This document shows, piece by piece, positions 12,236 to 20,000 of a DNA stretch of 20,000 nucleotides. Position numbers and translations under genes: made by a program. Numbering within the stretch: the first letter of the stretch is position 1; each line of letters starts with the position of its first letter. The notes under the pieces were generated by a model, which was not told the DNA's origin, did no database searches, and worked only from the letters and a program-made list of their open reading frames with translations. The DNA comes from Eremomyces bilateralis CBS 781.70. Taxonomy: Eukaryota. The stretch lies in NCBI GenBank assembly GCA_010015585.1, contig ML975188.1. One strand, given 5' to 3'.

Positions 12236-14051
12236 TCACCACCCTCTTCCCCTACCTCTCCCACCTCCGCGGCCACCCATCCCACCCCATCCCTGTGGTC
12301 CCTGCGGCCCACCTTGCCAGCTCGGAACCTGTGGGGGCTGCTGCTGCGTTCCTGGCCATGATGGCATCGGACCTGCGTATGGCATACCCATCGGCGGCGG
12401 AGGGGGGATCGAGAAACCTCCAGGCGCAATAGGAGGAGGCGGATGCGGAGGCCAATTCCCGGTGTAGCCCGCTGGGGGAGGGGGGATCTGCATTTGCATG
12501 CTGTTAGGTCCCATCGGCATTGGGAACGGCATGTTCGCGAACTGTAGGTTTGGCGGAGGGAACGGGCCGGACGAAAATGGTGGTTGGCCCTGAAATGATG
12601 CAGGAAATGGAGGTCCGGGAGCTGGTTGTGAGATGGGCGGAGAATATTGCAGAGGGGGCGGCCCTTGATTCCTTGGGCGATCGCGCCATTCTCTTGGTTC
12701 ATTGCTAGCGTGAACTTGTGGTCTTAACTGCGATCGTGAGCGAGAACGGCGAGATTTATGCGGATACGGTGATCTTGAGCGCGATGAAGAGTATCGCCGT
12801 CTCCTCGCCGCTCGCGAGGACGACTTGGACCGTGAACGTCCGTTGCGCGTGCGATCCCGCGAGTGGTTCCGTGATCGGCTGCGAGAATGGCTGCGCTGGT
12901 CCCGTCGTTTAGGAGTGCGCGAGCTGCCTCGACTCGGTGTATAGGACCGCTGCCTCGGTCGGCTGCTCGAGCGACTTCTTTCTCGACCCCGCGCACTCCC
13001 CGAGGCAAGTTCCCTCGCTCGCCGCTTCATCTGCTCACAGAAAGAAGCAGACCAGCCATAGTACGTGTCCAGCGGCACTAGCTCGCCCGTGTCGGGGTCC
13101 TTCACCAGTGGCTGGCCCATCGCATCTACGTCTTGTACTTGCTCATCAGCATATGGCGAGCGGAAGATTCGATCAATGTCCTCCATGAAATCCTTGACCG
13201 TATTCACAAGACCTGAGTCTGCAGGACCCCGTGTAAGTTGGATCGGTTTCATGTGCGAAATATTGATCGGTCTCGGCGAATTCGGTCGTATATGCGGCAT
13301 CATGTTTGCGGCAGGAAGATCGTAGTAAGGCGTGGAAGGGTCGCCATGAGTCGCGGGCAGATTATAGGGAACATCTTGATTATCCCCCCATCCTTTGACA
13401 GCGGCAGCGCGAGTCTGGCTCGTTGGTATTGGGAAGTCGGAGGTCTTCGCCGCAGTGGCACGTTCTCGTAATCTTGAAATCTCGCCTGATTCTAGAAGTT
13501 TTTGTCGCTCCCAAACGGCCAGCAAATCATCGAGCCTCCTCTCTAGCTTTGCGTGGCCTTTCGAGGAAGCCGACGTATGTGCAACCAGCTCCAACAGATG
13601 CGGTTGGATGCCATTCGAGAAGGACTTGTAGTTCGCCGATGTCGCCTCGTGGTATCGCAAATGATGCAACGCGTCGCTTAGAAGGTACAGTATATGGAGG
13701 CGCCTGCGCGCCGAGGAGGGGGCAGCCTTTGACCCTCCATCATCCAACGATGCGGACACCGCCGCAAGGTATTTCACAAGCGATGTGGTCTTGGAGCTGG
13801 AAGGCACGCAGTTACTGACGAGCCATTTCCGGCATTGCTATCGCATTGCGACGGTTTAGTGGATCCCGAAACAATCACTTCGATCGGGATAGAATTCAAA
13901 CCTGAACGTTGGTCGGCGAGCACTCGAGGAGTACGGTGTTGAGGAGGGTGTGGAAACGCGATAGCTCGTCACGCGACACGGGGGTTGGATCGGGTCGTAG
14001 CAATCCTGCAGCGAAAGACGCCTTGGCTACTGAAAGACTAATCGAAGTCAT
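12236..14051 (-). CDS. CID (RNA Pol II CTD-interacting)-domain protein with RS-rich, Pro-rich and RGG tail, CHERP/SCAF6-like, about 583 aa; exons 14051-13902, 13837-12236
   Basis: Exon 1 MTSISLSVAK...ECSPTNVQ, 64-nt intron (GTTTGA..TAG), then QCRKWLV...RRLHILYLLSDALHH (CID-like), PYYDLPAANMMPHI, long RS dipeptide tract, poly-Pro and a terminal GGRGGGRGRGRGW. Confidence 0.8.
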
Positions 14052-14294
14052 AGTGTTGAAGCAGCATTATTGCCCCGTGTATTGGTGCGAGGTTGAGGAA
14101 AATAGGCCAGTGGTGCATAAAGGCAACCTTTCTGCCCCAAATCATCACGAGCGCAGCTAGCACGTGATCTCTCCCATCCTAGAGTATAGCATCACCCCCC
14201 GTAGGATTATTAATCAAGGTATTCCTAATCATGGGGAGGAAACACGGAAATAGTTGAATCGCTCAAAAACAGCATCTTCGCGACGAGTGCATAC

Positions 14295-14308
14295 TTCCTA
14301 ATTAGGAA
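14295..14308. promoter_or_regulatory. Perfect palindromic CArG/Mcm1-type site TTCCTAATTAGGAA
   Basis: 14-bp perfect palindrome containing CC(A/T)6GG, about 245 nt upstream of the CID-gene ATG. Confidence 0.45.
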
Positions 14309-14445
14309 ATCAAATGATCCCCTTTTCTCATCTGATCGTCTGATCGTACAGTGATGTTTTGATCCTGATCTCGCGCCACATAACTACCTTGCTTACAGCA
14401 TTCACTCTCCGCCTTCCGGAAATCCTCCGCATCCACGCCACCCAG

Positions 14446-17400
14446 CTATGAACTCCGTCCTAACAGTGCCGCCTGCGAAGAAAGCGGAATTGAGGATGAC
14501 GATCCGACTGCCCGTCGGATATCCTACACTATGTCAACACCGCGCGATTGATTCAAATAATGTAAACAAACCTCTGCCGTGATATGCTGGTTCTCCCTCC
14601 TCTGCGCATCCTCCTTCCGGAACTTCATCGTCTCGCTCTCCGTGCGAGGGTTCAAATCCTGCAAGTCGAATGGAGCCTCAAACATGATCCCTCTAAGGCT
14701 TTTCACACGGGAGACTGCCACATAGGTCAGGCCAGGCGCGAACTCCCGCTCCGAAATGTCCAGCACAGCCCGTTCTAGAGTCATTCCCTGCGACTTATGC
14801 GTTGTGATGGCATAGGCGATGGTCAACGGGAACTGTGAACGTGAGCAGGAAGTATTCTCGATATAGAACTCGCGGCGTGATAGGAGGATTGGGACCAAGC
14901 CAATGCCGCCTACGTCCAACGTCGGTCCATCATACCGATCGAATTGAACGAGGAGTACGGAAGGAGGATCCTTATGGATATCAGCACCAGCCTGCCAGCT
15001 AATATCACGCACTGTTCCCATCGCACCGTTCACCAGGCCTCGTTCGGTCCAGAGATTCTCTGTCAACATAATACGGGTTCCCAACGCCATCGGAATCTCC
15101 GAATGGAGGTTTCCTGCCTCATTAGTCGGAACTTTTTCTGCCTTCGCCCCTCCTTCGTGAATAGCTCGACATATCATAACAGGAGAACGGAGATCGCGTA
15201 AACGACAGTAGTTATACACGGCGACCGGCGCTTTCTTACCAAAGATACGGAGAGTGTCCCCAAACGATGCTACCTCCTCAGACGGAAGCATGGCCTGTAC
15301 TCGTGTACTAAGCAGTGTCCAGTCGTCACGAGTTGCGGAGCCTATCCGCAGGTGATCGAGAGCCTGGCGGAACTGAATCGACTCAACGTCATTACCCTGC
15401 TGCCGCACGACTTCATCAAGTTTGATCGTTCGCTCGAATTGGTAGTAGATACTACGCCCATGCCGTTCATCTAGATTTAGATGACTCTTCTGGTTATAAA
15501 GAGCAGTTGCCAAGACCGGAGGAAGCTGGAAGAAGTCGCCACAGAGGAGAATACAGAGACCACCGAAAGACTTGTCTACGCCAGGAAAGATCTCGCGGCA
15601 ACGACGGTCAATATGGGAGAGCTGGCGAAGGCCGATCATAGATTTTTCATCGATAATCAGGTACCGTATACCCCGGAAGGTGGCCTGAGCGGCTTGAAGA
15701 GCAGCCGGCCGGAGGGGATCGAGAGAATTGATATTCTGGACAGGAAGACGGAAAAGAGTATGTAGTGTCGACGCGGAGAGACTGTGAGCTGCGACGCCCG
15801 TAGGCGCAGCACGAAGAACAGGGTTCGGTAATCTATGCCGTGAAGCTGCCTCCTGGAGATGCGAGGAGATCAGCTGAATAACAAAAGACTTCCCTGTACC
15901 CGCCTCGCCATCAACGTTAATCAGAAGCTGAGGCCCAGGAGTGCCTGTCGCAATAACGTGTGCGAAGTGGGTCGTCAGGATATCGTATGTTATACGTTGT
16001 TTAGCGTTCAGCTTTTCAACGGTATCAGGTGCGAAGGGAACAGCTTCATGAATATAGGGATACTGGGCCTTTGCAGTGGCCCACCACTCCTTCGTAATCT
16101 CATACTTCCCGACATGGGACGCCCAATCGTACTCACGGTCAAGAGGTCGTTGACCAAGGGCATCTGGGTCCTCTAGAACGGTTCTATCGCGACCAGGCAG
16201 TTGACCGGCGAGCTCATCCCAGCTCCCTTGCTGATCCTCCTCCTCATTGGCGCCTTCTTCAAACTCATCCTCGTCCGCAAGAACAATAGGGTCGTAATGA
16301 TCCACCGGATGGTTATGCTGACCATTCACGCAAGACGCGGAATACACCTCAGAATACGACGCAAAAAGCAGACCATCAAGCTCGGGCCGGAGGAGATCAT
16401 CCATACGGCGGAAGGGGTGATGTAGCATCAGTTTAACGCGACACCAGTCTTCGCGGGTATCGCCGACCGATGAATATCGGGGGAAGTAATTTAACGCCCG
16501 CTCCTTCCCTTCTCCTCTCTTCCGAATTGAGTTAACCCGTGCGAATTCATAGCAACGTAGAAACTCAAGATAGGAAATGTCGTTAAACGCTTCAGGTCTT
16601 TGCTTATACTTTTGAAGAGGGGAGAGGCCGCTCTGGATAGTCCCATCGTCCTGGATTTCAATTCCTTGGGGCTGCTCCACCTCCGGGCGACAATCGACGG
16701 AAATCACCACGCGTGAAGAGACTTGGAGGGGGAGATCAAGAAGAATATGGGAAACCTCCTGGGCTGACCAATCCCGCTCACCAATTAGACGATTCATAAT
16801 CTTCGTGGTCAGCGAAAGGAATGGCCGGCGCGTATGTTCGGGAACGATCGTTAGGAGATGTTTTAGGATATCGTGGAAGGTGGCCGTCTTCTTCTCTGGT
16901 TTTGAGCAGTACTTTCCAAGATACGCTAATACTGCTCGACTCCCTGTACAGGGCGTGATATCGATATTCGCAAGCCAGGCTGTGATAAGGGCAGGGTTGC
17001 TGTGATTTAACCGATCATCGTTCCGGATACCGCGAAAGTTAAAGAACCTAGGGTTGCCTTCATCCTTCGTAACCACAGGCACATCCCGGATCCGCCATGG
17101 GGCGTAGAAACGACACTCCTTCCGGTCAGTGCGTTTATTCGTACGGAGGCAGTACGCATCACTGCAGTGGTGCCTCTGTACACGGTTGATGATAGCCGAG
17201 TAATGGGCCAGTATATTCTCCTGGGTGTGGGGACTTAGCGCGATAGCACTCCGCTCATCCTCTGGTCGCACCCGACGGGAAGGTTCGGGGTTTAACGCCG
17301 TGATGTGACCGCCCCAGAACTGCGCAAATTTCTCAAGGGCGGCAGGGAGATCCTCCGTAGGGATACGATCAAGCTCGCTGTTAGGGCAGGCACGGTCTAG

Positions 17401-19709
17401 CCAGAGGAGGAAATGTGAGTGCGACGAGCCGCGACCCTGCCACTCGTATCGGCCCCATTGATCGCGGATGTTAAACTTAGGATCTACTAAATTCTTGTAG
17501 AGAGCCTCACGGCGCCGATGAAAGAGGAAGGCGGCGATATGGGGATAGTCTCGGAGGTTCCGGCGTGAGATTGAGATCCGCTCCGCTGGAGATCCATTAC
17601 GCCACTCCTCATATTGAGGTAAATGACGCTGTAGATCATCCCAGTGGTAATCGGCGGCCGACAGCGTTAAAAAGATGTCGGGAGACCCAAACCATTGCAC
17701 GGTAGCTTCAAGCTGCTTACCACGCCCAATCCAATAGGGCCGCGTGCCGCGTAGACTCCCTGAAAAACGGATAATAGAGTTCAGAAGGGCCTGGGCTTCA
17801 GGAGAGTCATCCGCAAAAGCAGCACGGAGTTCCTCAAGAGATAGATCATTATGCTCAGGACGTTGACGAACGAAGTAAGATGCACGGGTACTGACCTGTT
17901 TCCGGAAAAGAGTGTTAAAAAGGACATACCGTAGGCGCGGATGTTTCGCAAAGCGACCATCGTGGAACCTCATCAGATGCTTAATATATTCACGATACTC
18001 TACCTTACGGAGACGGGGATGAACGAAGTCCCCAATACCGCAGGGGAAGCAGCTTGGGAACGCCAGGCTTAGAAGAGCCTGAGAGTGGTTAAACTCAGAT
18101 AGAGGAGTCAATCTAAACTCAGGCATCGTCAGATGCTCACGTCGACGTTCATGAGCATCATCGACATGCTGCCGAAGTTGCTCCATCTCCGTCTGGGGTT
18201 GGAGGAGATCCGGGACTACGGCGACGTAATCTACCTCGTCTCCCGTATCGTCATCGCCGCCTCCTAGCTCTTCTTCCTCAATAGTCTGGACGCCGACCTC
18301 TTCCATAATACTATCATCAATAGGAAGATGCTGCACGCGGCTAGGGTCGACGACGACATCGCGATATCCGGGGTGGTAAACCTTTAGATGGGTTAGCAAC
18401 TGCTCACGACAGATATCTAGGGGGGTGAACCTTGAGATGGGTTAGCCACTGCTCGATGACAGTACGGCGAACACGGTAGTCGCGTCGAAACTGGCGCTGC
18501 ATACGGGGATCCTGATCCCAATTCGCAGGGCGAAGGACAACGATCTCAAGGTCTTTCGGAAGGAGAGGTAGTCGATTGTATACACGCCCCACGTCTCTCA
18601 TAAAGTTGATGATATGTCCTGTATAACGGTACTGAAGACCGTTAACCTTTCGAACCTCCACAGCACAATGGACACGGGCGATAAGGAGCTCCTCTACTTG
18701 AGATAACTCAGGAAGATTGTGATGCGACGGGCCCAGACCAGGATTTAAATGATTCTCTGCGGAATACAGCGGTGGTAAATCGCCTCGTTTCCTATCGTCG
18801 ATCCTACATCGATGACATATACCATCCACGAGACGCATATCAAACCATTTTTCGTCACATTGGGCGCAGTGCTCAAGGTTCAAACTAGCCATCTCCTGGT
18901 GGAAGGCCTTAACGTATCCCCAATCCTGCTCGGAAAGATTGGCATCCTGGATGTTGAAATCCCGGGACTGGGGATCGAGGCGAACATCTCCGCGCTGAAG
19001 TGCTTCTGTACGACCATCATCTCGCTGTTGACGTGTACGATTGCGTTGCTCATCTCTCCGTTGACGTGTACGATCGCTTTGCTCATCTGTCCGTTGACGT
19101 GTACGATCGCGTTGCTCATCTTCCTGATGACGTGTACGGGGTTGCTCATCGCCCTGAATTTGGGATAACCCGGCCAAGGAGATCGGACTTAGACGCCTAA
19201 ACCCGTTGTCGCCATCATCAGGAGCACCTTGACCTGATTGCGGTTGATGTGAAGGTGATAGCCTCCGTCGTTGGAGATAATCCCCGAACGTTGGTAGCGG
19301 CTGGACATTACGGTGTAGACGAGTAGCAGCGCGATGAGCCCGTGACATAGCATTATACTCCCTGCGAGCAGCGGCTCTATCCCCATCGTCTTGGCTATGT
19401 ATTCCGGCACGGTGGAATAGGGAAGCCTCCCGCCTCCAAGACCTATCGTCCTCAGTGTCGGTTGGTTGCGAGGACGAGGCGTCTCGCGTAGACGTAGCGG
19501 CGGGTCGAAGATAGGGGGTCTAATGATGTCAGCTTGAACGTATTCGAATCATTCACTCTACCTACAGCATCACCATGATCGTGGCCGTAACGACATCGCC
19601 AGCACTTCTTGACCAGTAGTCGGCGACGCTTCGAAGTAAACTCCTTATCAACCCTCCAGGACCTACAATTCGAGCATACTCTACCACCGGCGTCTCCAGA
19701 AGATGACAT
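14446..19709 (-). CDS. Helitron RepHel transposase, about 1706 aa (predicted exons 19709-19566, 19519-18431, 18381-14572, 14523-14446)
   Basis: Rep motifs PDIFLTLSA, YEWQGRGSSHSH (HUH), YLGKYCSK (Y2). PIF1 motifs GEAGTGKS, AAPTGVAA, LIIDEKSM, GDFFQLPPV, QFPLTIAYAITTHKSQGMTL, YVAVSRV. N-terminal CxxC..CxxC motifs and LPELSQVEELLIAR region. The exon model is inferred from splice signals; the core 14524-18399 is one open frame. Confidence 0.85.
18363..18454 (-). repeat. Tandem duplication with 49-nt period inside the RepHel gene (37/43 identity)
   Basis: gagcagtggctaacccatctcaaggttcacccccctagatatc vs gagcagttgctaacccatctaaaggtttaccaccccggatatc. Confidence 0.95.
19022..19150 (-). repeat. Coding minisatellite, 4 units (one 30 nt, three 33 nt) encoding DEQxxRTRQxx
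   Basis: GATGAGCAA..CGTACACGTCA.. starts at 19150, 19120, 19087 and 19054. Confidence 0.92.
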
Positions 19710-19873
19710 GTCGGAGGCGTAATAATAGAAGGATAAGTAAGTGGTAGATCAGGAATAAGAAGTAGATTGATTGATTGGTATCCCTACGCCCGTTAGGCCT
19801 CCCTGCGAGGCCCATGTGGGAAGAGTGGTGGAGAGGAAAGAGAGCGACAGAAAGTAAACAGTAAAAAGCATCG

Positions 19874-19912
19874 AAATCACGTGGTTTCCTCTCATAAATC
19901 ACGTGGTTTCCT
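19874..19912. repeat. Two perfect 17-bp direct repeats AAATCACGTGGTTTCCT (period 22) upstream of RepHel
   Basis: Copies at 19874-19890 and 19896-19912, each containing the E-box CACGTG. Confidence 0.9.
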
Positions 19913-20000
19913 TTCGCGAACCCCTGTCTAGCCAATGAGAGGGCAATAAAAAGTTTTTGATTCTACCAATACCACTTAAGTAACTCGCTACGCTCGTGAT

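Follow-up and report, generated by a model that had tools for sequence, protein, structure and literature searches.

A 49-nt intron in the transposase gene of a Helitron of Eremomyces bilateralis CBS 781.70 is, very probably, a spliceosomal (U2-type) intron made by tandem duplication of an exon site that carried a branch motif together with AG|GT. The window, that is, the whole stretch of 20,000 nt analysed here, makes up the final 20 kb of contig ML975188.1 (GCA_010015585.1; genome of 26.9 Mb), and the features that bear on this finding are the following.

14099..19999, minus strand: full-length non-canonical Helitron (FoHeli-like Helitron2) of ~5.9 kb, delimited by the divergence of flanks among copies
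19987..20000, minus strand: 5' arm, 14 nt long, of the asymmetric terminal inverted repeat; the target site may include position 20000
19566..19709, minus strand: coding exon 1, with a CxxC...CxxC zinc-finger-like start; putative start codon ATG at 19709
19520..19565, minus strand: intron 1, 46 nt, GT..AG; joint seen in X1 alone, and L017 has the orthologous intron
18431..19519, minus strand: exon 2, with DUF6570 and a 33-nt in-frame array at 19017-19138; ends in the latent GCTAAC..AAG copy
18412..18454, minus strand: repeat unit 1, 24 nt of exon plus 19 nt of intron, by self-comparison
18441..18446, minus strand: exonic source of the branch motif, GCTAAC within the W-L-T codons
18382..18430, minus strand: intron 2, 49 nt, phase 0, donor GTTCAC, acceptor AAG; exact skip in an RNA-like contig
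18397-18392, minus strand: candidate branch motif GCTAAC of intron 2, a sequence motif
18363..18405, minus strand: repeat unit 2, 24 nt of intron plus 19 nt of exon, by self-comparison
14572..18381, minus strand: exon 3, Rep (HUH, Y2) plus PIF1 helicase (PF14214, E 1.7e-38; PF05970, E 1.5e-22)
14524..14571, minus strand: intron 3, 48 nt, donor GTTTGT; joint in run X1 only, 42/48 identical to the L017 orthologue
14446..14523, minus strand: coding exon 4, through the stop codon of the spliced frame
14144..14168, minus strand: hairpin that holds the 3' subterminal arm (14144-14157, 13/14 match), 45 nt from the 3' end

The element starts with TCACG behind a TNA target and finishes with CTATTTT; the ATTTT end was present in all six copies examined, and the TNAT target context in all five with a readable 5' flank. 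The 3' hairpin had a predicted fold of -6 kcal/mol, equalled by 8 of 200 shuffles, and the 5' end had no predicted hairpin over its first 26 nt. The best-scoring named homologues were Helitron-type proteins of Fusarium, Talaromyces, Fonsecaea, Hirsutella and Metarhizium (38-54% identity over the region tested), and a scan of viral contigs yielded no relative. The 33-nt array at 19017-19138 comprises 3.7 repeats in the window, 4.4-5.1 in L014 and 3.2 in L016. Two upstream ATGs in exon 1 (19576 and 19570) open, once intron 1 is spliced, an overlapping out-of-frame ORF of ~120 codons (19189-19576, minus strand), which from its position could possibly damp transposase translation. Directly past the element's 3' end there is a host ORF of 533 codons (12236-13837, minus strand) made of an RS-rich and a proline-rich part, which we take to resemble a CID/RPR-type RNA-processing protein. 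Over 14099-20000, sequencing runs X2 and X3 displayed many internal-deletion joints (e.g. 14827-19515, 15762-19972 and 15978-19616), which are further non-autonomous derivatives.

An earlier reading made from the sequence only had proposed that a duplication of 49-nt period splits the transposase (RepHel) into two frames, that both copies carry AAG|GT, and that the removal of 18430-18382 restores the frame. All three points are confirmed here. TRF reported a period of 49 nt at 18363-18462 (2.0 copies, 84% matches), and in a scan of lags from 30 to 69 only 49 rose above the threshold. The two 43-nt units (18454-18412 and 18405-18363), with a 6-nt spacer between them, have exactly 6 differences, and both contain GCTAAC and AAG|GT. 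ORF1 (18404-19519, minus strand) encodes DUF6570 and terminates in ...HLKVHPPRYLS*, and ORF2 (14524-18441, minus strand) encodes Helitron_like_N plus PIF1 in a different frame, the two overlapping at 18404-18441. Among the 49-nt registers scanned, GT..AG ends were found only at 18430-18382 and 18465-18417, and only the former keeps the conserved W; with this GT..AG segment (GCTAAC at 18397-18392) and the other two introns out, the frame amounts to 1706 aa, as against 419 aa when intron 2 is kept. The register 18465-18417 was rejected, as it drops the W and was absent among the RNA-like joints listed, the zero-mismatch contig described below using 18430-18382; many longer GT/GC..AG pairs that restore the frame were discarded too, since they delete conserved residues. 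The expected conservation of W and HPxY was found in the 61 homologues (W in 57, H in 58, P in 57, G in 57 and Y in 60, three rows being gapped at W). As for intron size, pattern search pointed to three consensus-like introns of 50-52 nt in the window, and the other two introns of the element are 46 and 48 nt long. The number of differences between the copies had been counted correctly. When L016, which is intronless, serves as the reference, four of the six fall on the intron side and two on the exon side, namely H to Y at 18378 and a silent change at 18370.

A search of the genome returned nine DNA matches plus one distant protein match (L028, 56% protein identity), which is intronless at the site. 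The window copy (L010) and L011, L012 and L013 were 99.97-100% identical over their assembled parts and all carried the 49-nt intron (type A). Type A is also found in L014 and L015, which are decayed and show 92-93% identity near the site. L016 (C7) is intronless at the site and its helicase is missing, as it is in L018 (C38), which has an N gap over the intron site. L017 (C21:23900-32400) is ~84% identical, has an intact frame of 1691 aa if spliced, and bears at the same phase-0 junction (locus base 2948) a different intron of 47 nt (type B, GTATGT..GCTAAC..CTAG); a DNA search with the type-B region found no second copy of this type. Between the window lineage and L017, introns 1 matched at 38 of 55 aligned positions and introns 3 at 42 of 48. 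The copies also presented some peculiarities of their own. L014 (C2) has a ~500-nt insertion with short tandem repeats in exon 2, and its first exon base past the intron is altered (AAG|ATT). L016 and L018 constitute a non-autonomous family without window 16998-14488 and are identical to each other where compared, and L016 displays a 7-nt triple repeat at a frameshift. In L017 there is a 19/57-nt tandem array upstream of the element (locus bases 1110-1235), and its exonic branch motif has been mutated away (CTAAC to CTATT), a loss that perhaps removed a competing latent 3' site.

It is practically inconceivable that the duplication is an artefact of assembly, as the sequence-only reading had considered. 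Helitron copies do sit at contig ends, but the units are not identical (6 differences in 43 positions), six of the nine genomic matches have the duplication with substitutions of their own, and contigs from two DNA runs of one sample cross both units ungapped in a diverged copy (they match L014, with 37-39 differences). Behind intron 2, the changes private to the window lineage since the split of the three type-A lineages were 30 silent in 324 silent sites and 19 replacement in 1056 (ratio 0.19, a crude figure from few copies), and the comparison of L010 with L017 gave dS 0.41 and dN 0.08, also as crude counts. These counts suggest that the Rep region behind intron 2 was under purifying selection while splicing was obligatory. 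The intron had been called young, and this holds only in relative terms, because it is older than the divergence of three lineages between which the sequence near the site now varies by 8-13%.

Of five sequencing runs listed, three contain the stretch. No run is recorded as RNA, X1 having only been guessed to be such. A contig of X1 (481 nt, depth 627.5) spans 18245-18378 plus 18428-18774 with zero other letters. It joins 18378 to 18428 and thus skips 49 nt, and with the cut moved by +3 (CT..AC ends) the segment skipped is exactly 18382-18430, the gap expected between 18300 and 18500 if the intron is removed. This joint was not found in DNA runs X2 and X3, and the GT-AG joints at intron 1 (19519-19566) and intron 3 (14522-14571) were likewise seen in X1 alone. 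Moreover, X1 depth was absent upstream of ~19820. Since GT-AG joints restricted to X1 and a depth stop near 19820 are as expected of RNA, we infer that X1 is RNA. Over the span of the contig, the window differs from L012 at 2 positions and from L016 at 15, and the latter number indicates that the contig derives from window-type copies. The depth of bin 18422-18622 was 608.7, and that computed from this contig was 608.8 (627.5 x 195/201); one contig thus matches the bin depth, so that there is no other contig over 18422-18427 and no retained-intron contig there. The splicing evidence consists of one contig in one RNA-like run, and contigs drop rare variants, so that low-level retention could hide.

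On this evidence two other accounts of the interrupted frame can be weighed. The duplication could be a simple inactivating frameshift, the RNA-like contig coming from an intronless DNA copy. The unspliced frame stops at 419 aa, an intronless genomic copy exists (L016), the type of run X1 was a guess, and a possible source would be a window-identical DNA copy in the X1 sample, without the intron and left unassembled. Nevertheless, the contig bears the alleles of the window and not those of L016, X1 alone also shows two other GT-AG joints, the four youngest copies have the duplication with the region behind it under purifying selection, and the intronless L016 family is without helicase. We therefore consider this account highly improbable. 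The sequence-only reading had proposed that weak sites throttle transposase output. RNA left unspliced would limit the transposase or, in a variant considered here, yield a 419-aa inhibitor; P-element intron 3 is the comparison case for such regulatory intron retention. The fungal donor consensus is GTRAGT, from which the GTTCAC of intron 2 is distant, and the acceptor is AAG. In addition, it was correct that unspliced RNA would give the N-terminal part only, since the retained form of 419 aa comprises DUF6570 and the zinc-finger-like start, but neither Rep nor the helicase. However, no intron-retaining contig was present in X1, and the depth of the spliced contig (627.5) equalled that of the gene body (618 and 518), in one condition and with contigs that hide minor forms; moreover, intron 3 works with the non-consensus donor GTTTGT. 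A throttle is thus unlikely. Splicing appears constitutive rather than regulatory, and GTTCAC, a weak donor, suffices for it.

The sequences of both intron types were compared with the exons at their sides. Against L016, intron A begins with 19 nt from the exon downstream, and its remainder equals 31 nt from the exon upstream with one base missing. Five changes occur in every one of the three A lineages, and between one and three are private, which makes 6-8 differences in 50 columns; each half matches the L016 flanks, and none of 5000 shuffles was as good. Intron B is colinear with the final 43 nt of the upstream exon at 33 of 44 columns, with ~3 nt besides, a match that was the best of 1140 window tiles and was not equalled in 5000 shuffles. 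Nine of its ten mismatches are transitions (P ~4e-4 if one in three is expected); RIP was rejected as their cause because the changes go in both directions. Taken by themselves, the initial 29 nt of B resemble the upstream exon modestly (58 of 5000 shuffles as good for L016, 633 of 5000 for its own, more altered exon), and the exon origin of B is drawn from the whole colinear alignment together with the transition bias. At sites where the exons of L016 and L017 differ, B has the L016 state in 5 of 6, which fits a copy taken early. Introns 1 and 3 did not resemble their flanks. In the spliced coding sequence (5121 nt), AGGT occurs 17 times and CTAAC 3 times, but CTRAC with AG|GT 4-14 nt behind it is found once; this sole site is that of the intron, which explains its location.

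Once intron 2 is spliced, the spacing from W to H at the junction is 24 nt, as in homologues. Among 73 metagenome loci, 52 span the site (43 distinct junctions) and 21 do not; all 52 are intronless with the 24-nt spacing, AG|GT occurs there in none, and CTRAY in 4. These relatives are distant (24-57% protein identity over the best segments); the intronless immediate ancestor is reconstructed from them, and the sole close intronless copy, L016, may represent a secondary loss. With both intron halves matching the flanks, the site intronless in 52 of 52 relatives and exact removal in X1, the proposal of intron gain by AG|GT duplication is upheld. That an old, unrelated intron was homogenised to the flanking exons by local gene conversion appears to us barely credible. 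Two intron sequences at one position do show that replacement is possible, but the site is intronless in the 52 relatives and in the paralogue L028, all bases of both introns trace to adjacent exons, and conversion needs prior homology. In another fungal Helitron clade there is an intron of 44-62 nt located ~70 codons upstream, near query residue 87 and before RGxQY (of 20 loci viewed, 9 had a GT/GC..AG candidate, one of them doubtful; e.g. L058, L061, L063, L065, L068, L081, L097 and L100). It carries no duplication signature (scores of 10-21, versus 45 for intron A and 41 for intron B), so that a duplication origin is not general to Helitron introns. DNA searches of the genome with 501- and 381-nt queries matched Helitron copies only and, given the local origin, an introner-like element is unlikely. 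Transposon-derived introners are reportedly the subject of one published study.

Whether types A and B had one birth or two was evaluated by sequence comparison, which somewhat favours their descent from a single ~66-nt duplication, trimmed or overwritten differently in each. A 66-nt in-frame unit with TGT microhomology contains both and supplies the A of the B donor; under this model A and B would each have lost 16-20 nt, or the 5' half of B would have been overwritten from the upstream exon. The two types have one derived change in common (A-to-G). They display 14 changes since birth, when the full path from one lineage to the other would be expected to give ~11, and a Poisson comparison favoured one birth near the split by ~7-10 to 1, a crude value in which introns are assumed to change at the silent-site rate. 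A minority possibility is that A and B are two independent duplications of different register at one latent hotspot. Their 5' halves are unrelated (3633 of 5000 shuffles as good), whereas the orthologous introns 1 and 3 are alignable; each intron fits one simple duplication (~50 and 46 nt); and the latent site is unique in the gene of an element that makes tandem repeats elsewhere (the 33-nt array). The common A-to-G change, the unit that would hold both introns and the timing ratio stand against it. Any other history of A and B seems improbable.

At the L016 junction, copy 1 passes into copy 2 inside a run of 10 identical bases that includes AAG|GT, which fits the ancestral state, a precise loss or a repeat collapse. 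In the flanks, the three A lineages are united against L016 at 8 of 1671 columns (conflicting patterns 11, 9 and 8), and ~25 such columns would be expected had the shared intron changes arisen after the L016 split (a crude figure; reverse test P 0.07). An 882-nt tree placed L016 outside the A copies (UFBoot 82), and a 1.69-kb test preferred it beside L015 without rejecting the outside position (p-AU 0.35); L011 and L013, near-identical to the window, and L018, with its N gap, were left out of the trees. We believe that loss is the probable explanation for the intronless L016. A history in which the same codon junction gained an intron twice and a repeat collapse followed in one descendant (gain, regain, loss) can be entertained only tentatively.

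The following sequence of events would account for the birth of the intron. By chance, the codons of W-L-T-H-L-K-V would spell a fungal branch point, with AG 11 nt on and GT directly after. A duplication over that motif would leave a donor in copy 1 and a branch point plus acceptor in copy 2, so that GCTAAC at 18397-18392 is the predicted branch point, supplied by the duplicated exon; the spliceosome would then remove one unit and the protein would be unchanged (Rogers model). The duplication may have arisen by slippage or template switching, with an original unit of perhaps 50-66 nt that was later trimmed. The spliced 1706-aa protein would have driven the recent burst of four near-identical copies, and copy L016 would have lost the intron again.

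The mechanism is already known, and what is new is a well-documented natural example in a Helitron. In the literature, where most matches were judged by title and abstract opening, we found neither a duplication-born intron in a Helitron transposase nor two exon-derived introns at one site. No new mechanism is revealed, and nothing points to regulation of the transposase. The case preserves the source, the product, RNA-type splicing evidence and selection evidence, and its multicopy host displays active, decayed, second-form and intronless copies side by side in one genome. It also offers a testable rule, namely that a duplication is viable where codons already spell a branch point plus AG|GT, here one place in 5 kb. 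Two independent births, if true, would mean that nature had repeated the making of an intron from exon at a hotspot determined by sequence.

The element is like FoHeli1/2 of Fusarium oxysporum, as described in PMC5148889, in its asymmetric inverted repeat, ATTTT end, 3' hairpin and TNAT context; the 3' arm of that type lies ~38-51 bp from the ATTTT end according to the same description. It differs in starting with TCACG rather than TCAG, in having no predicted 5' hairpin and in carrying three introns, and the missing 5' hairpin makes it not a FoHeli1/2 proper and brings it nearer the Chaetomium type presented there. The word "intron" is absent from the main text of PMC5148889.

The origin of spliceosomal introns is an old question. 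The Rogers model postulates the tandem duplication of an AG|GT exon, and has been shown experimentally for ATP2A1 (PMC3265369). The sequence-only reading had described it as a proposed mechanism with few natural examples; the mechanism is known, if rarely documented, and PMC3443670, which reviews it, lists 188 events, many of them imprecise. The source sequences of new introns are rarely found, as summarised in PMC4974935. The fission-yeast cases SPOG_01682 and SOCG_00815, multiples of a 24-bp unit (cited in PMC4974935), and the Drosophila near-intron pairs, of which PMC2891723 presents 5 as probable on the basis of proto-splice scores, resemble the window in that an AGGT-bearing exon was duplicated in a fungal or small-intron genome. 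Unlike them, as they are described, the window has a single unit that is not a multiple of three, which makes splicing obligatory. The intron gain in the potato RdRp was also a recent tandem duplication with an identifiable source, but the 3' signals of that intron came from one already present, according to PMC4974935, whereas the window intron takes all its signals from coding sequence. Parallel gains are known for introner-like elements and Daphnia (PMC4457414); in those reported, two introns occupy one position and come from mobile or unknown sequence, while here both copy the adjacent exon. In the Zymoseptoria data summarised in PMC4457414, other duplication kinds, tandem included, make up <1% of single gains. 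The closest exon-duplication system and the window intron have in common an exonic source, a duplicated AG|GT, an exonic branch point and an unchanged peptide. The window intron differs in that its homology to the source is still ~85-90%, in that it has minimal fungal size, and in that its host is a multicopy transposase whose sister copies keep a second form and an intronless form.
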